In this document: positions 6,095 to 19,427 of the stretch, one piece after another
How the letters are laid out: each line of letters starts with the position of its first letter
Position numbering within the stretch: the stretch's first letter is position 1
DNA from: a virus
Taxonomy: Duplodnaviria; Heunggongvirae; Uroviricota; Caudoviricetes
Strand: one strand, 5' to 3'
Virus record (IMG/VR): IMGVR_UViG_2734482780_000011
Coordinates: 1 to 20,361 of that record
Length of the DNA stretch: 20,361 bases
Notes under the pieces: model-generated
What the model was told of the DNA's origin: nothing
The model's database searches: none
The model's input: the letters and a program-made list of their open reading frames with translations, nothing else
Translations under genes and position numbers: made by a program

Positions 6095-6948
6095 GCACCA
6101 TCCTGAAATGGGCGGGTAATAAAACCGCCATTATGCCGGAACTGAAAAAATACCTTCCTGCTGGCCCGCGACTGGTTGAACCTTTCGCGGGTTCTTGTGC
6201 TGTGATGATAGAGACGGATTACCCCAGCTATCTTGTTGCGGATATTAATCCTGATTTAATCAACCTCTATAAAAAGGTTGCTGCTGATTGCGAGGCGTTT
6301 ATATCTCGTGCCAGAGCTTTATTTGAGGAAGCAAACAGGGAGGTGGCTTATTACAACATAAGGCAGGAGTTTAATTACTCCACTGAAATTACTGATTTCA
6401 TGAAAGCGGTATATTTCCTGTATCTCAATCGTCATGGTTACCGTGGGTTATGTCGCTATAACAAGAGCGGGCATTTCAACATTCCCTACGGGAATTATAA
6501 AAATCCGTATTTCCCTGAAAAAGAAATTCGCAAATTTGCAGAAAAAGCCCAGCGAGCAACGTTTATCTGCGCCAGCTTTGATGAAACGCTGGCGATGTTG
6601 AAGGCGGGGGATGTGGTGTATTGCGATCCGCCTTATGACGGTACGTTTTCCGGCTATCACACTGATGGCTTCACTGAGGATGACCAGTATCACCTGGCAT
6701 CCGTTCTTGAACATCGATCATCTGAAGGTCATCCGGTCATTGTTTCTAACAGTGACACATCCCTGATTCGTTCGCTGTATCGCAATTTCACTCACCACTA
6801 CATCAAGGCAAAACGCAGCATCGGCGTGTCGGCTGGCGAGAGTAAATCTGCAACAGAAATCATTGCTGTTTCCGGGGCGCGCTGCTGGGTGGGATTTGAT
6901 CCTTCGCGTGGCGTGGATAGTTCTGCTGTGTACGAGGTGCGTGTATGA
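6091..6948 (+). CDS. dam: DNA adenine methyltransferase (Dam-like N6-adenine MTase), no adjacent restriction gene
   Basis: N-terminus [26 protein letters not shown]-binding FAGSCAV, catalytic DPPY ([10 protein letters not shown]); GGAGGTG precedes the ATG at 6091; ORF-track start at 5977 is an upstream extension. Confidence 0.9.
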
Positions 6949-7757
6949 GTCATGACGATATGAGCAACTCTAGCGGCTTTAACGAGGCCGCTGCAGCATT
7001 TTCATGGAACGGCCCGAAAAAGGCCATTAACCCTTATCTGGACCCGGCGGAAGTTGCGCCGGAGTCTGCACTTTCAAACATGATCACTCTGTACGCTGCC
7101 GATAACGAGCAGGAACAGCTGCGCCGCGATGCACTGAGTGAGCAGGTCTGGGAGCGTTATTTCTTTAATGAATCCCGTGATCCTGTCCAGCGCGAAATGG
7201 AGCAGGATAATCTCATTAGTCGGGCAAAGCTGGCGCATGAGCAGCAGCGTTTTAACCCGGACATGGTCATTCTGGCGGACGTCAGCGCCCAGCCCACCCA
7301 CATCAGCAAGCCGCTGATGCAACGTATCGAATACTTCAGCAGCCTGGGCAGGCCAAAGGCTTATTCCCGCTATTTGCGTGAGACGATTAAGCCATGTCTG
7401 GAGCGACTGGAGTATGTACGCGACAGTCAGCTATCCGCTTCTTTCCGTTTTATGGCAAGCCATCAAGGGCTTGAGGGCCTGCTGATCCTGCCTGAAATGA
7501 GTCAGGATCAGGTAAAACGCCTGTCCACCCTGGTACGCCAGGTGAAGCTGAAAAGGCGTAAAGACTACAAACAGCGAATTACAGATCATCAGCATCAGCA
7601 GCTCGTCTATGAACTGAAGTCCAGAGGATTTGATGGCAGCGAGAAAGAGGTCGATTTACTCCTTCGCGGTGGCAGTATTCCGTCAGGAGCAGGCCTGCGT
7701 ATTTTCTATCGGAACCAGCGTTTGCAGGAAGATGATAAGTGGCGGAACCTGTATTAA
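6945..7757 (+). CDS. Hypothetical 270-aa protein
   Basis: ORF start overlaps the dam stop (ATGA at 6945..6948); acidic/glutamine-rich, no recognised domain; does not look like a rolling-circle replication initiator. Confidence 0.55.
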
Positions 7758-8343: not shown

Positions 8344-8749
8344 GAAACGTTGCCCCCAGGAGGATTCATTCTGATGGGGGCTAGTTTGGGTAGCGAGTGA
8401 AACGAGGCGTAAGGTGGGCGGCCATTTTGATAAGTGATTGTACGATTTGTGTTGTGAGTTCAACGGGACGATGCAACGCTATCCTTAATCAAGGGGACGT
8501 TGCTCATACCCATCGATGCAATGAAAATCCATACTCATGGGGAAGACCAGAATGTCCCTGCCTTTTTCATTTTGTTCAGCACATGCACTATGGCCATTGC
8601 CTTCCCAAGCTAGCTATCGTAATCACTCAGCGTCAGTAAACTACTGAAAAATTGTTTTACCTTGTATATCAATAATGCCAAATCATACCCAAAAAATCGA
8701 AAATAATTAGATCGACAGGCAGAAGGCAATGTGAATAATCTTAAAAACC

Positions 8750-8779
8750 TTGACTGTCAGTGAGGTTTGGTTCTATAAA
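8750..8779 (+). promoter_or_regulatory. Candidate promoter of the darTG operon (-35 TTGACT, 18-nt spacer, -10 TATAAA)
   Basis: Read from the sequence, about 30 nt upstream of the darT start. Confidence 0.4.
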
Positions 8780-8810
8780 TAGACTTACGAATTTGAAAGG
8801 ATGAGTTGAA

Positions 8811-9392
8811 ATGAGCGAAAGGAAAAGAATTGAAGATCAGTATCTTCTCTATCATTTAACATGTATGGATAATCTACCTAGTATTTTAGACACAGGATTA
8901 AGATCTCGTGCATCAGTAAAAGGTGAGTTTGTTGATGTGGCCGACGGTGAAATAATAACAGGTCGCGAAGCATTAAATTTGCAAACAATGGTTCCTTTTC
9001 ATTTCTTTACTAAGAATCCATTTGATGGAAGAGTCCTGAAAGATCATAAGGAAAAATCATTTTGTATTATTTCGGTTTGTCGGGCATTTGCCAAAGAAAA
9101 TGGTTGGAAAGTTATCCCTAAACATCCATTATCCACCAGTTCTGTTATAGACCTCTTAGATTATGAACAAGGAATGGCCCAAATTGACTGGGAGCTAATG
9201 AATATAAGGGATTATAAAAATGCAGAATGCAAATCTGTATGTATGGCTGAGTGTTTATCAAGTGTAACGGTCGAGCCGAAAAATTTCCATTGCATCTTTG
9301 TCAAAAATGATAACGAAAAAAAATATGTTGAAGGGTTGATAAAACAACAAGGATTAAGTATATTGATAACGATCAACACTTATATGTTCTAA
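8811..9392 (+). CDS. darT: DarT-like ssDNA ADP-ribosyltransferase toxin (DUF4433 family)
   Basis: LYHLTCMDNLPSIL, VPFHFF, DWELM and a late acidic segment match my recollection of DarT signatures (IYHITHIDNLKGIL, VPFYF, DWEAM); AT-rich; immediately followed by a macrodomain gene. Confidence 0.7.
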   Translation: MSERKRIEDQYLLYHLTCMDNLPSILDTGLRSRASVKGEFVDVADGEIITGREALNLQTMVPFHFFTKNPFDGRVLKDHKEKSFCIISVCRAFAKENGWKVIPKHPLSTSSVIDLLDYEQGMAQIDWELMNIRDYKNAECKSVCMAECLSSVTVEPKNFHCIFVKNDNEKKYVEGLIKQQGLSILITINTYMF

Positions 9393-9396
9393 TTCT

Positions 9397-10368
9397 ATGA
9401 TTAAGTATGCAAGCGGAAATCTTCTAAACTCTACATCGCAAGCTCTTGTGAATGCTGTAAACTGCCAAGGAGTCATGGGAAAGGGTATTGCTTTGGCTTT
9501 TAAAGAAACTTTTCCCTATAATTTCGAAGTTTATAAGAGAGCATGCGCCACTGGTACAATGAAAATTGGACAGGTTTTAATTGTAGAGGAAAAGGGAAAA
9601 ATAATTGTAAACTTTCCCACTAAAGATAGTTGGAGAAAAAAATCAACATATGATTTTATCTCGCAAGGCCTTGAATCTTTAGCAAAAATTATAGATGAAA
9701 AAAAAATTACATCAATATCAATACCACCTTTAGGCTGTGGTAATGGGGGCCTCGATTGGAATAAGGTTGAGGCTCTTATTTTAAAAACTTTTCAAAATTT
9801 AGATAATGTTGATGTGGTAATTTATCCGCCTGCAACTAACAATCAACTTTCAAAAAATAAAAATGTTATTAATGCTAAGCATCTTTTGGTTCACTACGCC
9901 TATGGAAAATTAAAAGTTAAGCAAAAATATTCCCTTTATACAGTTTTTTATATTTGCGAATGTATTGAGAAAGCAAATCTTTTTTTATTCGATTTTAAAC
10001 ATGGTCGGCCATACTCTTCTGAGTTAGAAAATATTATGAAGGATATAGCAAACCTTAAAGTTGAGTTGCAAGGAGATTTTGATGCTTTTATTGAAGATTA
10101 TATTAATACTCATCAATCCAAAGAGTTACAAACCGAGTTTGGTAAACTAATCTCAACTTTAAATCCAAGTATAAGTTTGCTCAATGCTCTTAAAAATAAG
10201 ATTGATTATATAGATAGCGTACATGTGATCACGAGAATTGCTAAAGAAAAAGATCATGGCTTGCATATTGACAATTTCAAAGAATATGAAAATATTGTGC
10301 AGCATTTAATTAAAAATGGATTGGTAATCGAAGATATTTTTAACGAACTAAAAATAAAGGGAAGTTAG
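9397..10368 (+). CDS. darG: DarG-like macrodomain antitoxin
   Basis: N-terminus GNLLNSTSQALVNAVNCQGVMGKGIALAF is the macrodomain nucleotide-binding signature (N-x-x-N / G-x-G loop); 4 nt downstream of darT; AT-rich. Confidence 0.75.
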   Translation: MIKYASGNLLNSTSQALVNAVNCQGVMGKGIALAFKETFPYNFEVYKRACATGTMKIGQVLIVEEKGKIIVNFPTKDSWRKKSTYDFISQGLESLAKIIDEKKITSISIPPLGCGNGGLDWNKVEALILKTFQNLDNVDVVIYPPATNNQLSKNKNVINAKHLLVHYAYGKLKVKQKYSLYTVFYICECIEKANLFLFDFKHGRPYSSELENIMKDIANLKVELQGDFDAFIEDYINTHQSKELQTEFGKLISTLNPSISLLNALKNKIDYIDSVHVITRIAKEKDHGLHIDNFKEYENIVQHLIKNGLVIEDIFNELKIKGS

Positions 10369-10920
10369 TAGCGCTATTTTCAATTTTTTTGCTGAAATTG
10401 CGCATGCACACTCTCACGCATTATAGATGCGGCGTTAATCCCGCCAGGAGTGTTGTTTAATAAATTGAACTATTTCTGCATTGAAGGATCAACTTACGCA
10501 TTCGCTGACAACGCAGGCACTCTCCTGGCTAAGCAGAAATTCAGAGTAACCAACTGGCACTTTTACAACAATTTTCTTATCAGTTGCGGCTCCATGACTT
10601 TCTGGTGGGATAACAAAGCAATTAAGGCGTGGTATTGTAAGTATCCCGCATAATCATGCTAGTAACATTTGTCCCCCATGTAACCTAATTAAGGCAACTT
10701 CCGCTCTTCGCTCACAGTGAACCTCCATGTTTGTAAACCCGTATATTTCGTTTTTTAAGTGGTCATTCAGATACGGATTTTCACTTCTCTTGGCTGTGCA
10801 TGACTATGCTGCATGAAATTGCATGATCGTTTGAGGATCGTTTTTGCTGAGGCCCCCCAGAACTGGCGGGCTTTCGCTTATGTCATGCAGGTGCATGAAA
10901 ATCACTGCATAAAGCGGGCA

Positions 10921-10939
10921 GGCGTGGCGGGGATACGAG
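10921..10939. other. Candidate cos site (P2/186-type cohesive end region)
   Basis: ggcgtggcggggatacgagcgcgcgct resembles the P2/186 cohesive-end region as I recall it (GGCG[A/T]GGCGGGGAAAGCA...GCGCGCT); recalled, not searched. Four TGCATGA copies lie 20 to 125 bp upstream. Confidence 0.5.
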
Positions 10940-11091
10940 CGCGCGCTAAGTCATATAAGAGTTATATATTGATTTGATTGCTGGACATGCATACAGTATC
11001 GCTCTATCATCTAATAAATCTTAGAGTATTTGACAATGTTTGGATAAAATGGAACCTAACTTATTCATAATCCGCTAAACAGGGATGTCAG

Positions 11092-12006
11092 ATGCCATAC
11101 CAATTGGTAGAGCTTAGCCCCGTAGCTAACGATCTTGAACAGTTAGGAACCAAAGAGAAGTTTTGGTTCTATTTCTCCGATGACACTGTAAATTTGCAGT
11201 TGTTTAAGTACTCTAGGCCAGATACTGGCGAGCATTGGTCTGAAAAGTGTGCTGCTGAGTTATGTCATTTGCTTAACATTCCACATGCTAGCTATGATTT
11301 GGCGCGATACAATGGTCGATTCGGTGTGGTGACTCAGAATATCATTCCATCTGGTTTCCGGATGGTAATGGGAAATGAAGTGCTTCACAGTTCGACATTC
11401 GATTATCCTGGGCCTTTACAAGCCGGGGAAAAGCCGGTAAGGGTCAGAGAACACACTGTCACAAGGGTATTGGGTTGTTTAGATAGGGAATCTATCAAGC
11501 CTCCTCCGAGTGTATATGATCTAACCGGGCTAAATGCAGCAGATGTATTTTGTGGATATTTGATGCTCGATGCACTTGTGAGTAATCAAGATCGCCATCA
11601 TGAAAATTGGGCGATCATGCTTAACAATGAAACTGGTGAGCAGTTTTTGTGTCCAACATACGATCATGCCGCTAGTTTAGGAAGGGAGATGTTAGATGAT
11701 GAGCGTAACGAACGGCTTAATACTAAAGATAAAAATCGACAAATCCCATGTTTTGTAAGAAAAGCTCGCTCTGAGCTATTCAAAGCAAAAACTGATAAAA
11801 AGCCCTTGCTGACCGTTGAAGCATTTCAACATGCAGTTGAAGGGAGAGTTGCCGCTCGCGACCATTGGTTAGGTAAGTTGAGCGTTTTAACAGAAGATTC
11901 CATTACAGATGTGTTTAACCAAGTGCCTTCATCGTGTATATCCGACAGTGCACGTAGATTTGCAACGTTAATGGTAATGGAAAATCGCAGAAGGTTACTA
12001 GAATGA
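11092..12006 (+). CDS. HipA-like serine/threonine kinase, short form lacking the N-terminal domain (304 aa)
   Basis: GTKEKFWF (compare HipA GAQEK), catalytic-loop-like LVSNQDRHHENWAIM (compare HipA D-x-H-x-K-N) and LCPTYDHAASLG (compare HipA P-x-YD) in the HipA order and spacing. Confidence 0.65.
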   Translation: MPYQLVELSPVANDLEQLGTKEKFWFYFSDDTVNLQLFKYSRPDTGEHWSEKCAAELCHLLNIPHASYDLARYNGRFGVVTQNIIPSGFRMVMGNEVLHSSTFDYPGPLQAGEKPVRVREHTVTRVLGCLDRESIKPPPSVYDLTGLNAADVFCGYLMLDALVSNQDRHHENWAIMLNNETGEQFLCPTYDHAASLGREMLDDERNERLNTKDKNRQIPCFVRKARSELFKAKTDKKPLLTVEAFQHAVEGRVAARDHWLGKLSVLTEDSITDVFNQVPSSCISDSARRFATLMVMENRRRLLE

Positions 12007-12743
12007 CTAATACAAACTCCGTTTACGTCGCATGGCAGGCACCAGATACCAGAGACTGGCATGTTGTTGGTAACTTGCAAGAGCGCAAATCGGGGTATGT
12101 TTTCAGGTATACCAAAGGTGCTCTTAAATCTACTAAATTTACAAAGTTTAGCGGCATGAGTGATGTTCGTGAAACTTATGTTTCGGAAGAATTGTTTCCT
12201 CTTTTTAAAAATCGCCTTTTATCACCGAGACGTCCAGAGTATCCGAGTTTCATTAAATGGCTTGGATTTGAAGAAGATAAGGTAAATCCTATCGATATTC
12301 TTGCTCGCTCGGGAGGCCTACGAAGCACTGATCAGCTGCAGATTTTCAAAAAAATTGATGTTGATTCTGATGGTAACTTTGAGCATTTTTTCTTCTTACA
12401 TGGACTTGGTTACTTAAATAGCTTAGCTAATGCTCGTGTATCTGAATTGAAACCGGGGCAAATTTTGCGTCTTTGCTTGGATCTTCAAAATGAATACGAT
12501 GGGGATGCTGTTGTCGTTCGTGCAGATAAACCAGCTGAAATCGTTGGTTATTGCCCTAGGTATTTAAGTAATGATATCAAGAAGATGTTATTGGATGATC
12601 CAAAATCAATCACTTTAACGGTCGAAAAGATTAGCGATGATGCTCCTCATAACTATCGGTTATTATGTAAATTATCAGGAGTACTAAGCCAAGCCTGTCA
12701 ATCGACGCTGATTCCTCAGGATGAGTTTGAACCTATTGAGTAA
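12003..12743 (+). CDS. Two-domain partner: HipA-N/HipS-like N-terminal domain fused to a C-terminal HIRAN-like domain (246 aa)
   Basis: Start overlaps the kinase stop (ATGA). N-terminus VYVAWQ...VGNLQ...YVFRY...LFPLFKNRLLSPRR resembles the HipA N-terminal domain. C-terminus KPGQILRLCLDLQNEYDGDAVVVRADKPAEIVGYCPRYLSNDIKKMLLDD fits the HIRAN pattern. Confidence 0.55.
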   Translation: MTNTNSVYVAWQAPDTRDWHVVGNLQERKSGYVFRYTKGALKSTKFTKFSGMSDVRETYVSEELFPLFKNRLLSPRRPEYPSFIKWLGFEEDKVNPIDILARSGGLRSTDQLQIFKKIDVDSDGNFEHFFFLHGLGYLNSLANARVSELKPGQILRLCLDLQNEYDGDAVVVRADKPAEIVGYCPRYLSNDIKKMLLDDPKSITLTVEKISDDAPHNYRLLCKLSGVLSQACQSTLIPQDEFEPIE

Positions 12744-12748
12744 ATGAA

Positions 12749-12774
12749 GAAAAGCCACCAAACGGTGGCTTTTC
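12749..12774. terminator. Bidirectional rho-independent terminator between the HipA-like module and Q
   Basis: 11-bp perfect stem gaaaagccacc / ggtggcttttc with a 4-nt loop, T-rich flanks on both strands, between convergent stops at 12743 and 12778. Confidence 0.7.
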
Positions 12775-12777
12775 TTA

Positions 12778-13818
12778 TTATGGGACTATATCTAGCGAGT
12801 AGGTATTAAACTGTATCGCCTCCTTGCCAAGCCAATCATTCATCTCCTGTAATCGCTTTTGTAGTGGCATTAGCTCATTTCGGACGAATACACGGCTTGC
12901 CTTCTCCACATCCCCAAACCCCCCAACATTATTCGGCATAATCCCCATCATTTGCGGCGGCACACGATGCGCCGCCATCATGTCGTCCCGGCTTACGTTC
13001 TTGATGTTCAGAAACTCATCCTTTGCCGCCACTTCTGACAGCGGGATGATCTGAAGCCCGTCCTTTTTGCCGTTAGGCGAGTACATAAACAGGTTGCGGA
13101 AGTTGCCCGGACCTTTGGCGCTTTTCATCGCGTTGCGGAGGTTGTTCACATCCTCCTGGTTCTGAGCGGCATCGGTCATGTACATTATGAATCCTGCATG
13201 GCTGCCATTAATATAATATTTGCGTCGGAACAGCGTGGCGGACTCGTTGAGCAGGGCTGACGGAATGGCAGAAAGATAGCCGGGCAGGCCGTAGATCTCC
13301 TGGTTGATATCGGGTTCCATCAGATGAAAGATGCTGCCTTTCGTGAACTGATACGGCTGGGTTGTCATACCGTATTGCACAAACCAGTAGGTATCCAGGT
13401 CTAACCCGCGTCGGGTGTATTTTGCCAGAGCAGGCTCAAGGGCGATAACTTCACCGAAGCGGTTCGTGCGTTTCTCCAGGTAGGCGTTACCAAATACCAG
13501 ATAGTCCTGCACAAAACGTGAAAAAGCCTGCTGGCTAAGCAGCGGGTGAGGGATGTAGGTGCTGGTTAGAATGTTGCATTTCACTGCAATGGGTGAGCTG
13601 TGATGCACGGCGGCGCGGAAGGTTCGCGCCAGTCCGTCAAAGCTGACGGGCGGCTCATACCAACGGTCCATCTGTACGCATTCCACATAGTCCAGTAATT
13701 CTCGGCGGTCCAGTACTGGAATGGGATCGCCGAAGCTGAATGCTTCGGCTGAAGTCTGGCTTTTATGCTGGGTCTGGTTCTGCGACGCAGCGCGGTTCTT
13801 CTTACTCTTTCCCATCAA
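12778..13818 (-). CDS. Q: Portal protein (P2 gpQ-like)
   Basis: 346 aa, close to the size of P2 gpQ; start overlaps the stop of the upstream terminase fragment as in the P2 PQ operon; 3' end points toward the cos-like site. Confidence 0.8.
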   Translation of the reverse strand: MMGKSKKNRAASQNQTQHKSQTSAEAFSFGDPIPVLDRRELLDYVECVQMDRWYEPPVSFDGLARTFRAAVHHSSPIAVKCNILTSTYIPHPLLSQQAFSRFVQDYLVFGNAYLEKRTNRFGEVIALEPALAKYTRRGLDLDTYWFVQYGMTTQPYQFTKGSIFHLMEPDINQEIYGLPGYLSAIPSALLNESATLFRRKYYINGSHAGFIMYMTDAAQNQEDVNNLRNAMKSAKGPGNFRNLFMYSPNGKKDGLQIIPLSEVAAKDEFLNIKNVSRDDMMAAHRVPPQMMGIMPNNVGGFGDVEKASRVFVRNELMPLQKRLQEMNDWLGKEAIQFNTYSLDIVP

Positions 13819-14231
13819 AAAATCTCCACAATATTGCTGGTATTGGCGGACTCGCCCTGCAGCGGTTCGTTAAACAGTGCGTGCATTGTTGCCCAGGCCA
13901 GATCGGCGTGGCTGGCTTCTTCGCTGCGGCTGGCTTCATAGGTCGGGCGGTTGCCACTGGCGGTGGTGGCGCGACGGATTGCCATAAATGACTGCGCTAT
14001 GTCGGTGTGTCCGGCGTCAAACTCCAGACGGCGGTGGCTGATAATGTCGTAGGCCTTGAGTACCAGAGCGTTTTTAACGTTGGGGTTGTAGACAAACTCC
14101 CGGACGGCAGGAAAGAACGCTTTCACGTTCTCATAAACCCCGTGACCGACGCCTGTCGAGTCAATGCCGATATAGGTCACGTTGTACTGCTCGGTCAGTT
14201 TTTTGATTCCGCCCTTAATCATCTCAACCAT
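13815..14231 (-). pseudogene. P: Terminase large subunit (gpP-like), C-terminal 138-aa remnant
   Basis: Only the C-terminal part of what should be an approximately 590-aa protein; coupled to Q; no upstream start or ATPase region present. Confidence 0.65.
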
Positions 14232-14298: not shown

Positions 14299-15618
14299 AT
14301 GACAGCCGCTGACAGAACGTGCCCCCGCGCACGGGCGGCACGGGGTGGCGAAAGGCACAGCCACATCAAAACCCCGTCCACCGCCCTTTATTTCAGGAGA
14401 AAGCAGCATGAAGTTTGTTGCGCCAGAACAGGCAACGCCGCAGGTTTACTTACTGCGCCGTTGTCGTCTTTGCGCCGCACGGCATCACTGACGGGAAATG
14501 TCCTGAAAACTGTAGCAGGTGCGCCGGTTGCACTTTTGCGGTCTGGATTATCCGGTTTACGTGCTGTTGCTGTTATGTTTATGAATCCTCTGGCGGTACT
14601 GCGCGGTGGACTGGCCGCCGCAGGCACGGTGCTGCGAGTACTGGCATCTGGTCCACTGGCGATGCTGCGCGTTGCCCTGTATGCCATATCTGGTCTGTTA
14701 GGTGCTCTGCTCAGTCCGATAGGTCTTGTGGTTACTGCACTGGCGGGCGTGGCGCTGGTTGTCTGGAAATACTGGCAACCCATCACCGCATTTCTCGGTG
14801 GCGTGGTGGAAGGATTCAAAGCGGCGGCAGGTCCCATCAGTGCAGCGTTCGAACCGCTTAAGCCCGTGTTCCAGTGGATTGGCGACAAAGTGCAGGCGCT
14901 GTGGGGCTGGTTTACTGATCTGCTGACGCCCGTTAAGTCGACCTCTGCCGAACTGCAGAGCGCAGCGGCAATGGGGCGGCGATTCGGGGAGGCACTGGCG
15001 GAAGGGCTGAATATGGTCATGCATCCGCTGGACTCCCTGAAATCCGGCGTTTCCTGGTTGCTGGAGAAGCTCGGCATTGTCAGTAAAGAGGCCGCAAAGG
15101 CAAAACTGCCGGAAAGCGTGACGCGTCAGCAACCTGCGACGGTGAATGCAGACGGTAAAGTGATGATGCCATCGGGTGGTTTTCCATCATGGGGATATGA
15201 CTTTGCGGGGATGTATGACAGCGGCGGGTATATCCCGCGCGGGCAGTTTGGCATCGTCGGTGAAAACGGGCCGGAAATTGTTAACGGCCCGGCAAATGTG
15301 ACCAGCCGGAGAAATACAGCTGCACTGGCTGCCGTTGTTGCCGGAATGATGGGCGTTGCTGCCGCGCCAGCAGAGCTTCCACCGTTGCACCCTTTGGCAC
15401 TTCCCGCGAAAGGTGGAGAAGCAATTGTGAGTCGCGCAGCCACTGTGCCGCTCGTTCAACGGATTGAGGCACCGACGCAGATCATCATTCAGACGCAGCC
15501 AGGACAAAGTGCGCAGGATATTGCGCGGGAGGTGGCACGCCAGCTTGATGAACGTGAACGCAGGCTGAAGGCAAAAGCCAGGAGTAACTACAGCGATCAG
15601 GGGGGATACGACGCATGA
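14299..15618 (+). pseudogene. T: Tail tape measure protein (gpT-like), C-terminal portion only
   Basis: Gly/Ala-rich helical repeats and GGYIPRGQFGIVGENGPEIV near the C-terminus; 439-codon frame versus about 800 aa expected; followed directly by U and D. Confidence 0.65.
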
Positions 15619-17582: not shown

Positions 17583-17629
17583 CAACAAAAAACCCATCAA
17601 CCTTGAACCGAAATGGCGGGGTTGATGGG
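17583..17629 (-). terminator. Rho-independent terminator downstream of ybjL (minus strand)
   Basis: 10-bp perfect stem cccatcaacc / ggttgatggg followed on the minus strand by TTTTTTGTT. Confidence 0.6.
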
Positions 17630-17741
17630 CTCCACAAAATGGGGACATCAAAGAAAAGCAGTGGCACTAATTAAGACTGATGCCCTGCGGAAAAGTTCTG
17701 CGGTTGTGCAAAAAAATTTCATTTTCAGGGCAACTTCAGTT

Positions 17742-19427
17742 TTATCCTAATCCTGGCCATACCATGACGATGATTGTCCCTGCCAGCGTCAGCAGGACGT
17801 TGGCGATTGCGTAGGTGCCCGCATAGCCCAGCGCAGGGATGTTACTGCGAGCTGTATCACTGATGATCTCCATTGCCGGCGCGCAGGTGCGTGCGCCCAT
17901 CATTGCGCCGAACAACAGTGCGCGGTTCATTCGCAATACATAAGCACCGAACAAGAAACAGATAACCACGGGCACAAGACTGACAATTAATCCGGCAATC
18001 AACATCTGACCGCCAATCGCGCCCAGGCCGTTATTAATACCGCTACCGGCGCTCAGACCAACGCCTGCCATAAACACCATCAAGCCGAACTCTTTCACCA
18101 TGCTTAATGCACCTTGCGGAATGTAACCGAAGGTCGGGTGGTTAGCACGCATAAAGCCCAGCATAATTCCGGCGAATAACAACCCGGCAGCGTTCCCCAT
18201 GCCGAAACTGAATGTGCTGAACTGGAAGGTGATCATCCCGATCATCAGCCCAATAACAAAGAAGGCGCAAAATGCCAGCAGGTCAGTGACCTGGCTGTGA
18301 ATCGAGATAAAGCCGATGCGATCGGCGATGGTTTTTACGCGACGGGCATCACCGCTGACTTGTAAAACGTCACCTTTGTTAAGCACGACGTTGTCATCTA
18401 TCGGCATCTCAATCTGGCTACGAATGACGCGGTTAAGGAAGCAACCGTGATCGGTCAACTTCAGTTGTGCGAGACGTTTACCTACAGCGTTATGGTTTTT
18501 AACGACCACTTCTTCAGTGACGATACGCATGTCGAGAAGGTCACGATCGAAAACTTCTTTACCGTTACGGAAGCTGGGATCGAGTCGGGCATGGGCGTCG
18601 GGATAGCCTACCAACGCTATTTCATCGCCCATTTGTAGCACGGCATCACCGTCTGGATTTGCCAGAATCCCGTTACGTCGAATACGTTCAATGTAGCAGC
18701 CGGTTTGTCGATAAATACCCAGTTCACGCAGATTTTTGCCGTCGGTCCAGGCCACCAGCTCCGGGCCGACGCGATAGGCGCGGATCACCGGTAAATAAAC
18801 CTTACGGTTGGCATCAGTGTCCAGGCCACGTTCGCGGGCGATTTGCTGGGCGCTGGTCTGTAAGTCCTGATGCTGCAATTTCGGCAAGTAACGCGCACCA
18901 ACAATCAAACTCACCAGACCGATTAAATAGGTTAAGGCATACCCGAGGCTCAGATTATCCAGTGCCAGTGAGAGCTGCCTGCTTTCCATGCCGGAATGAC
19001 GCAGTGTATCGCCAGCACCGACCAGAACCGGTGTCGACGTCATAGAGCCTGCTAACATACCGGCCGTCAGGCCAATATCCCAGCCAAACAGCTTACCTAA
19101 CCCTAAGGCGATCACCAGCGCACTGCCAACCATCACCAGTGCTAACATTAGGTAATTTTTCCCATCGCGAAAAAAAATGGAAAAAAAGTTCGGTCCGGCT
19201 TCGACCCCGACGCAGAAAATAAACAGCATAAAGCCAAGATTAAGCGCATCGGTGTTAATGCTGAAATGTTGTTGGCCTAATAACAGCGATACGACTAAAA
19301 CGCCAATGGAATTACCCAGTTGGATCGAACCAAGTCGTAACTTTCCGAGACATAGCCCAAGCGCGAGGACCACAAATAATAACAGAATGTAATTCCCATT
19401 TAACAATTCGGCGACGTTTATATTCAC
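17742..19427 (-). CDS. ybjL: Putative AAE-family transporter YbjL (chromosomal)
   Basis: 561-aa membrane protein starting [33 protein letters not shown], recognised as E. coli YbjL; followed by ybjM and grxA in the K-12 order. Confidence 0.9.

Follow-up and report, generated by a model that had tools for sequence, protein, structure and literature searches.

The open reading frame (ORF) at positions 12003-12743 of the window, by which we mean the whole 20,361-nt stretch of viral DNA analysed here (IMG/VR record IMGVR_UViG_2734482780_000011), is assigned with high confidence as hipN, which follows hipI (11092-12006) in the two-gene cassette hipIN. Its product combines a HipS-like domain at the N-terminus with a C-terminal HIRAN domain, and the gene directly upstream encodes a HipA-family kinase. 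The name HipN was given by Gerdes, Baerentsen and Brodersen (mBio 2021; PMC8262856), who put the protein as the putative antitoxin of hipIN modules. A first-pass annotation, made from the sequence letters, had proposed a HIRAN-like domain fused to a HipS-like domain in this ORF and had linked the protein to a Hip-type kinase; profile, fold and gene-context tests bear out both the fusion and the link. Both the family, which already has a name, and the hotspot are known, and the present gene is in no way unusual among its kind.

HipN, a HipS-like domain joined to a HIRAN domain

The HIRAN pattern that the annotation had seen in the C-terminal part of the protein was confirmed by two of the checks it had suggested, and both domains of the protein stand well clear of chance. 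In a profile search, positions 3-95 of the 96 in the Pfam HIRAN model (PF08797) match aa 127-228 at E 1.1e-13, and the score of 51.3 bits is twice the gathering cut-off of 24.7. The peptide quoted in support of the pattern, KPGQILRLCLDLQNEYDGDAVVVRADKPAEIVGYCPRYL, corresponds to HipN aa 150-188 and includes the NxYDxxA HIRAN core. Searches of the PDB with the HipN sequence or profile gave nothing significant, the best match being lp_0118 (E 0.45); therefore, a fold comparison was needed. A confident AlphaFold2 model made with 36 homologues (mean predicted local distance difference test score, pLDDT, 88.7; predicted template modelling score, pTM, 0.83) has a HIRAN-type beta-barrel at about aa 122-236. 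The predicted barrel and the NxYDxxA core are shared with the HIRAN domains of HLTF and Rad5 and with bacterial lp_0118 (PDB 4s0n, 4xzf, 6l8n, 3k2y). The eukaryotic HLTF and Rad5 domains differ in being joined to SNF2 translocase and RING ligase modules for fork reversal.

In the HIRAN domain of HLTF, D94 recognises the 3'-OH, and the final two bases are pinched between Y72 and Y93 (PMC5773155). The HLTF sequence was checked against the PDB (100% match) and aligned to HipN by hhalign and by MAFFT L-INS-i; conservation was scored in 36 close homologues and in 132 distant homologues that are 30-49% identical. As judged from these alignments, HLTF N91, D94, A97 and G109 fall on HipN N163, D166, A169 and G182. 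All four are present in 36/36 close homologues and in 97%, 90%, 98% and 98%, respectively, of the distant ones. HLTF K113 corresponds to R186, again found in 36/36 close homologues and as Arg in about 77% of the distant set. The two pinching positions tolerate some exchange. At Y137 (HLTF Y72), the close set has 23 Tyr and 13 His, with Tyr or His in 85% of the distant set; at Y165 (HLTF Y93), it has 29 Tyr, 5 His and 2 Phe, with an aromatic residue or His in about 55% of the distant set. HLTF R71 and F142 have no conserved counterpart in HipN: the former falls on Gly or Ser at position 136, which is not conserved among close homologues, and the latter on H216, which varies in both sets. Thus, with the 3'-OH-reading Asp and both pinching aromatic positions present, HipN retains the core of the HLTF pocket, though without every contact, and its DNA binding is putative. 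A Cys3-His metal site was also considered, given that H133, C158, C184 and C222 are invariant in close homologues; it was rejected because C158 and C184 are not kept in distant ones.

The N-terminal domain is predicted to consist of a five-stranded sheet and three helices, the fold of HipS and the equivalent of N-subdomain 1 of HipA. As in HipS systems, the adjacent kinase has no N-subdomain 1 of its own. The block between F65 and W86 is the most conserved part of the domain (Table 1). Among the distant homologues, F65, F68, N70, R71 and R77 are kept in 91-97%; over the domain as a whole, D110 ranks highest (99%), followed by R71 and R77 (about 97%) and then by N70, Y36, F65 and F68. Alignment by hhalign places F65, F68 and N70 on HipA F58, F61 and N63, which belong to the FFDNLL motif, and the near-invariant R71 on HipA L64, so that the motif reads F68-K-N70-R71-L in HipN. 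In HipS, a helical region forms the interface with HipT, bears the Trp65 wedge and neutralises the kinase. By analogy, the F65-W86 block is the probable kinase-contact surface of HipN. By way of HipA, R71 is brought to the region of the inhibitory Trp65 of HipS and might play its role.

HipI and the layout of the cassette

HipI matches the PADLOC model PDC-M03A over nearly its entire length (E 2.2e-122, profile positions 4-300 of 305). The Pfam HipA_C model gives a weak match (E 2.9e-4, below threshold), and a search of the PDB with the HipI sequence returned nothing significant, CtkA being best at E 0.44. In Foldseek, an AlphaFold2 model of HipI (pLDDT 83.3, pTM 0.86) matches CtkA (E 4e-11, TM-score 0.67-0.73), HipA, and the HipT chains 7wcf, 8ezr_B and 7vkb_A (HipS-HipT complexes). 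HipI thus has the HipA-family fold, in 304 aa, that belongs to the kinase of a hipIN module. Its size is that of the CtkA/HipT core, and the position of its Gly-rich loop, close to the N-terminus, agrees with what is described for short Hip kinases of clade XI. Since the Gly-rich, catalytic and Mg-binding motifs are invariant in 34 homologues, HipI looks like an active core kinase without N-subdomain 1. The domain that it lacks is the one carried by its neighbour HipN.

The cassette is bicistronic, with the kinase gene 5' and hipN 3'. The hipN product matches PADLOC model PDC-M03B at positions 1-241 of 245 (E 3.4e-93). At the junction of the two genes, a GAAGG Shine-Dalgarno-like motif (11990-11994) precedes the hipN ATG by 8 nt, and this ATG shares four nucleotides, ATGA (12003-12006), with the TGA of the upstream ORF. 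Frames of kinase and HipN also overlap, by 11-14 nt, at loci in Vibrio, Stutzerimonas and Sororendozoicomonas. Upstream of hipI, a sigma-70-like promoter candidate fits the consensus at 10/12 positions and is the sole promoter-like match within 10300-12900. It lies in the 300-400 nt or so upstream that accompany the cassette from one E. coli genome to another. A search of the region upstream of hipI for an operator or a structured RNA gave weak repeats, no Rfam family and this one promoter-like site. On the downstream side, a hairpin between the convergent hipN and portal genes appears terminator-like in both directions; it was missed by the terminator scan because its T-run sits within the stem.

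Table 1. Features of the hipIN cassette and of its surroundings. Positions refer to the window; residue numbers refer to HipI or HipN unless HLTF is named.
Feature	Positions	Strand	Description
hipI	11092..12006	+	304-aa HipA-family Ser/Thr kinase core without N-subdomain 1; PADLOC PDC-M03A; phrog_8728
Gly-rich loop of HipI	11143..11160	+	L18-G-T-K-E-K23 (T20); invariant in 34 homologues
Catalytic loop of HipI	11584..11607	+	N165-Q-D167-R-H-H-E-N172; invariant in 34 homologues; aligns with CtkA catalytic region (phmmer)
Mg-binding motif of HipI	11659..11673	+	Y190-D191-H-A-A194; invariant in 34 homologues
hipI/hipN junction	11990..12006	+	Translational-coupling junction, read directly from sequence
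hipN	12003..12743	+	246 aa, ATG start, unbroken ORF; HipS-like and HIRAN domains; PADLOC PDC-M03B; phrog_8026; RefSeq 'HIRAN domain-containing protein'
HipS-like domain	12003..12356	+	aa 1-118; five strands, three helices (predicted); equivalent to HipA N-subdomain 1
Conserved HipS-like block	12195..12260	+	F65-P-L-F68-K-N70-R71...R77-P-E-Y80...W86; invariant in 36 close homologues
HIRAN domain	12381..12686	+	aa 127-228 by Pfam
HIRAN core	12489..12509	+	N163-E-Y165-D166-G-D-A169, equivalent to HLTF N91-P-Y93-D94-K-N-A97 of the 3'-OH pocket
Promoter candidate	10982..11010	+	Sigma-70-like, TGGACA-17-TATCAT; consensus match about 80 nt 5' of the kinase start
Hairpin	12750..12773		AAAAGCCACC-AAAC-GGTGGCTTTT; between convergent hipN and portal genes, read from sequence
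DarT and DarG genes	8811..10368	+	DarT 8811-9392, DarG 9397-10368; neighbours in the hotspot, outside the hipIN cassette
Portal gene gpQ	12778..13818	-	P2-type; right border of the hotspot; Pfam Phage_portal E 3.7e-19

Proposed mode of action and its alternatives

In addition to naming HipN, Gerdes et al. suggested that DNA ends, whether of an invading phage or of replication intermediates, are recognised by HIRAN and that such recognition would activate the kinase, leading to abortive infection (PMC8262856). The DNA-end-sensing reading of the first-pass annotation is this published hypothesis almost word for word. Their study listed 14 hipIN modules, without experiments, placed HipI in a clade that includes a Proteobacteria/Cyanobacteria subclade, and defined HipL, a fused kinase-HipS-HIRAN form. 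The present HipN has the domain architecture, size class and gene order of theirs, and nothing essential differs; its accession does not occur in the searched part of their supplements. The cassette has also been nominated as a defence candidate, PDC-M03, by Payne, Hughes, Fineran and Jackson (bioRxiv 2024, 10.1101/2024.01.29.577857). According to the searched text of that work, the nomination followed from embedding in BREX, DISARM or type I restriction-modification loci, with a count of 684 in its table; that text reports no phenotype and is silent on the HipA/HIRAN nature of the proteins. Both genes described here match the PDC-M03A and PDC-M03B models at full length. Architecture, name, hypothesis and defence-candidate status of this gene were all previously on record.

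Three other systems provide points of comparison. HipL strings the three modules of hipIN together in one chain, their order unchanged, whereas in hipIN they are split over two overlapping genes. HipS of the HipBST systems (E. coli O127, Legionella) stands alone as a protein of some 100 aa that is encoded 5' of HipT and accompanied by a separate HipB; HipN, in contrast, is encoded downstream of its kinase, carries HIRAN, has no HipB partner and shows the near-invariant R71 on HipA L64. HipS inhibits through Trp65, while HipN has no evident Trp wedge. In HipAD/DS-6, a HipA-family kinase confers a phage defence that needs the kinase catalytic residue (DefensePredictor, PMC13092281). Like hipIN, this system is prophage-associated and pairs the kinase with a non-HipB partner; that partner (DUF3037/DUF1829), however, is unrelated to HipN and has neither a HipS-like nor a HIRAN domain.

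We envisage that HipI is a HipA-family Ser/Thr kinase cut down to its core domain, to which HipN, through its HipS-like domain, would supply the missing N-subdomain 1 in trans. Like HipS on HipT, HipN would most likely hold the Gly-rich loop of HipI inactive. The HIRAN domain would act as sensor, gripping unprotected 3' DNA ends that build up during infection; candidate sources are phage genome ends, replication or recombination intermediates, and degraded DNA. Binding of DNA would shift or free the HipS-like clamp, and HipI so released would phosphorylate an essential factor of the host. This factor would probably act in translation and, going by HipA and HipT, would be an aminoacyl-tRNA synthetase. 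Translation would then halt and the infection abort. Control is more likely to be allosteric than proteolytic because HipL is a natural fusion of kinase, HipS and HIRAN. We rate an anti-phage or exclusion role of hipIN as fairly probable. The complete scheme, a split HipA-type kinase with HIRAN as its DNA-end sensor, is put forward tentatively, and its triggering step, the switching on of HipI by DNA ends through HIRAN, with if anything a little more reserve. The hotspot site, the varying co-cargo (see below), the PDC-M03 nomination and carriage on temperate elements are consistent with a function in defence, as is the kinase-dependent defence given by HipAD/DS-6. Sensing of DNA ends agrees with the conservation of D166, N163, Y165 and Y/H137 and with the hotspot site.

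Several points weigh against this scheme. The HipS-like assignment depends on predicted structure: Pfam Couple_hipA (PF13657) scores 16 bits, below its cut-off of 22.5 (E 0.018, aa 20-72), and the hhalign match of HipN to HipA 11-65 is weak (E 0.027). An Arg, R71, is found where the region of the HipS Trp65 wedge aligns; inhibition may therefore differ from that exerted by HipS, or HipN may even activate the kinase. The order of the genes, with the putative antitoxin 3' of the toxin, is the reverse of that in hipBST. In the HIRAN domain, the pocket is partly conserved, the equivalents of HLTF R71 and F142 not being maintained and only some 55% of the distant set having an aromatic residue or His at that of Y93. 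A literature search gave no report of DNA binding by any bacterial HIRAN domain, and no experiment on hipIN, HipN, HipI or PDC-M03, the last being a candidate, or on HIRAN in phage defence was found in the searchable literature. Finally, cells always have 3' ends, at forks and nicks, and the P2-type rolling-circle replication of the prophage itself would make free 3' ends. A plain 3'-end sensor would therefore need a way to tell infection from growth.

Alternatively, hipIN could be a classical addiction (toxin-antitoxin) module, with HipN as a labile antitoxin whose HIRAN domain replaces the helix-turn-helix (HTH) of HipB in autoregulation of the operon, and with stabilisation of the prophage or island, not infection sensing, as its main effect. 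HipN has indeed been classed as a putative antitoxin (Gerdes 2021, PMC8262856), and the cassette occurs on integrative elements beside integrases. Neither in E. coli, Vibrio and Sororendozoicomonas nor in the phage records does the cassette include a HipB-like HTH gene, and autoregulation would therefore need another DNA-binding element. Against this, the characterised HIRAN domains hold 3' ends without sequence specificity (PMC5773155), and the interval from the promoter-like site to the start codon has no convincing operator-like palindrome, the repeats found being weak. Moreover, the putative antitoxin is the second gene, and the single-chain HipL cannot act through differential antitoxin stability. 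We consider autoregulation through HIRAN unlikely, and a mainly stabilising role unlikely too. A different possibility is that HipN is an obligatory activating and targeting subunit. Its HipS-like domain would complete the kinase in the manner of N-subdomain 1 of HipA, which is integral to the active enzyme and whose place is taken on HipT by HipS; HIRAN would bring the holo-kinase to DNA ends, where DNA-bound replication or repair proteins of phage or host would be phosphorylated. HipN keeps the HipA-type F-x-x-F-x-N motif, has Arg at the position of HipA L64 and shows no evident Trp wedge; with coupled translation, HipI and HipN should be made in about equal amounts, as befits subunits, and HipL is a permanent fusion. 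Yet HipS, the sole free-standing homologue of the domain to have been studied experimentally, is inhibitory, and the known substrates of Hip kinases are cytosolic translation factors, with none bound to DNA in evidence. Both completion of the kinase by HipN and its delivery to DNA-bound targets seem to us improbable.

The nature of the signal could also differ from that proposed above. The contacts of the HLTF pocket are confined to the 3'-OH and the two final nucleotides (PMC5773155), and these contacts are kept in HipN; the ligand might thus be short 3'-OH DNA fragments (deoxy-di- or oligonucleotides) released by phage nucleases or by those of the host or its defences, in place of long DNA with its ends. 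In Actinobacteria, roughly one in three genes for dedicated deoxydinucleotide nucleases (diDNases) lies directly beside genes for HipA-domain and HIRAN-domain proteins (Nucleic Acids Research 2025, PMC11706625), an arrangement that fits a signal-clearing enzyme. A fragment lodged in the two-nucleotide HIRAN pocket would then unlock HipI, and the Actinobacterial diDNases would be the off-switch. Against this, no nuclease gene accompanies the cassette at any gammaproteobacterial locus examined, and the diDNase paper (PMC11706625) leaves the link open. With the case for it being entirely inferential, we give fragment sensing a small chance, and the same holds for the proposed off-switch. Lastly, the two genes could be inert, decaying passengers of a dead prophage, from which the capsid genes, part of gpA, most of the terminase and a large share of the tail region are gone. 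This seems highly improbable: both ORFs are intact with all catalytic and pocket motifs preserved, it is the cargo genes that the prophage has kept, and 21 complete E. coli genomes have the cassette, at an identity of at least 98.8%, within intact prophages.

If the DNA-end-sensing scheme is correct, no bacterial immune module before hipIN would have read free DNA 3' ends by means of HIRAN, HipI would be the first HipA-type kinase turned on by nucleic acid and not by loss of an antitoxin, and a eukaryotic fork-remodelling domain would be tied to prokaryotic immunity. Should fragments be the ligand, hipIN would represent a kinase pathway that senses damage products, giving HIRAN a signalling role apart from fork remodelling. 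As a discovery, the gene adds little. The location in the P2 hotspot and the extent of the family, with 1,640 cluster representatives, go beyond the 2021 study; the present analysis further adds the site beside DarTG, the conservation of the pair in unrelated contexts and the retention of the core of the HLTF pocket. The remaining interest lies in a large hipN family, found on temperate phages of Proteobacteria and Firmicutes, for which the literature apparently holds no experimental characterisation. The E. coli-type allele offers a convenient entry point, being located in a well-studied and easily cloned P2 hotspot.

Prophage setting and distribution

The window is a degraded P2/186-like prophage. 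Its genes run in the order integrase, CI, CII, DUF5347, Dam methylase, gpA remnant, DarT/DarG and hipI/hipN, followed by portal, terminase remnant, the C-terminal part of the tape-measure gene and gpD, beyond which host ybjL-like and RybB sequences are found. The region between gpA and gpQ is a validated prophage defence hotspot (Rousset 2022, PMC9122126), and hipIN is accessory cargo in this cos-proximal hotspot, beside DarTG. In intact P2-like prophages of E. coli, the cassette lies between a DinI-like gene, which follows gpA, and the portal gene gpQ; RefSeq names the latter 'phage portal protein' in all E. coli matches. DarT and DarG were recognised by Pfam (DarT E 9e-22, Macro E 6e-19) and by PADLOC (DarT E 2e-36, DarG E 1e-80). 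Neither reaches its NCBIfam equivalog cut-off (53 vs 150 bits for DarT, 231 vs 250 for DarG) and the pair is therefore a divergent DarTG variant. The segment that contains it (8451-10694) stands in place of the SIR2+ATPase cargo of E. coli strain 2c3. In other E. coli prophages, the genes beside hipIN are SIR2+ATPase or small hypothetical genes, not DarTG. A functional link between hipIN and DarTG was rejected because the co-cargo varies between genomes.

Relative to an intact relative, the prophage has suffered a deletion of about 1.6 kb inside gpA, the remnant of which lies at 6945-7757. Of the large terminase, the C-terminal 138 aa are left (13815-14231), and a deletion of about 4 kb from this gene into the small-terminase gene has removed scaffold, capsid and most of the small terminase. 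The tape-measure gene is reduced to its C-terminal part (14299-15618, phrog_5690 positions 509-907) and most tail genes are missing. The DarTG and hipIN cargo is intact within this defective prophage, a pattern of defence genes retained while the prophage around them decays. In comparisons with E. coli genomes, the left boundary of the cassette varies, similarity starting at about 10694-10708, 10753 or 10794-10798, while on the right it always continues into the portal gene. The variation is consistent with repeated recombination in the 300-400 nt or so upstream of hipI.

The same cassette was found in 21/5,426 complete E. coli genomes, always in the chromosome. Farther afield, a HipA_C-type gene encoding 303-309 aa lies directly 5' of HipN homologues in Vibrio coralliilyticus, Stutzerimonas and Sororendozoicomonas, in entirely different flanks, and the hipI-hipN order is the same in 8/8 other loci inspected. 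Thus, hipI and hipN are a functional unit with obligatory pairing of the genes. Similar pairs adjoin an integrase in a 14-kb Vinavirales element of Vibrio cyclitrophicus (PQ189359.1, locus L010 3039-4732) and in Clostridioides phage phiCDKH02 (PP767789.1, locus L011 3092-4681); hipIN is therefore temperate-phage cargo across distant phyla. An exhaustive search with a HipN profile yielded 1,640 cluster representatives (50% identity) at E<=1e-3, 318 of them at E<=1e-30. Nearly all of the top 150 are 235-270 aa long and matched over both domains; none of these 150 is a kinase-fused, HipL-type relative. In PHROGs, phrog_8026 (HipN) and phrog_8728 (HipI) are families of unknown function.

A few relatives depart from the common form. 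One HipN relative of 408 aa (P0255) is extended at the C-terminus by some 180 aa, which weakly resemble a restriction endonuclease (pPIWI_RE_REase, E 0.0017). Another protein (P0271) joins Secretin domains to HIRAN and is probably an artefact of assembly or gene calling. Several HipN homologues carry the name 'restriction endonuclease' in databases, which looks like mis-annotation. At the Stutzerimonas loci (L003-L005), HTH_3 and PhdYeFM antitoxin-like genes lie just 5' of the kinase gene on an integrase-bearing island (about 6264-7008 in locus L004).

Elsewhere in the window, a 488-aa ORF of very low GC content (0.29-0.33) occupies 1143-2609 on the minus strand, between the integrase and CI repressor genes. 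Pfam, PADLOC and PHROG gave no match for it, and its homologues number just 17, all annotated as hypothetical, in Enterobacter, Citrobacter and Dryocola; it is orphan prophage cargo and possibly a further accessory or defence gene. At the other end, just past the end of gpD, the gene for the small RNA RybB (Rfam RF00110, 105 bits) lies on the minus strand at 17584-17662 and adjoins a ybjL-like Asp-Al_Ex permease gene (17742-19427). This arrangement suggests that the right attachment site of the prophage is near rybB.

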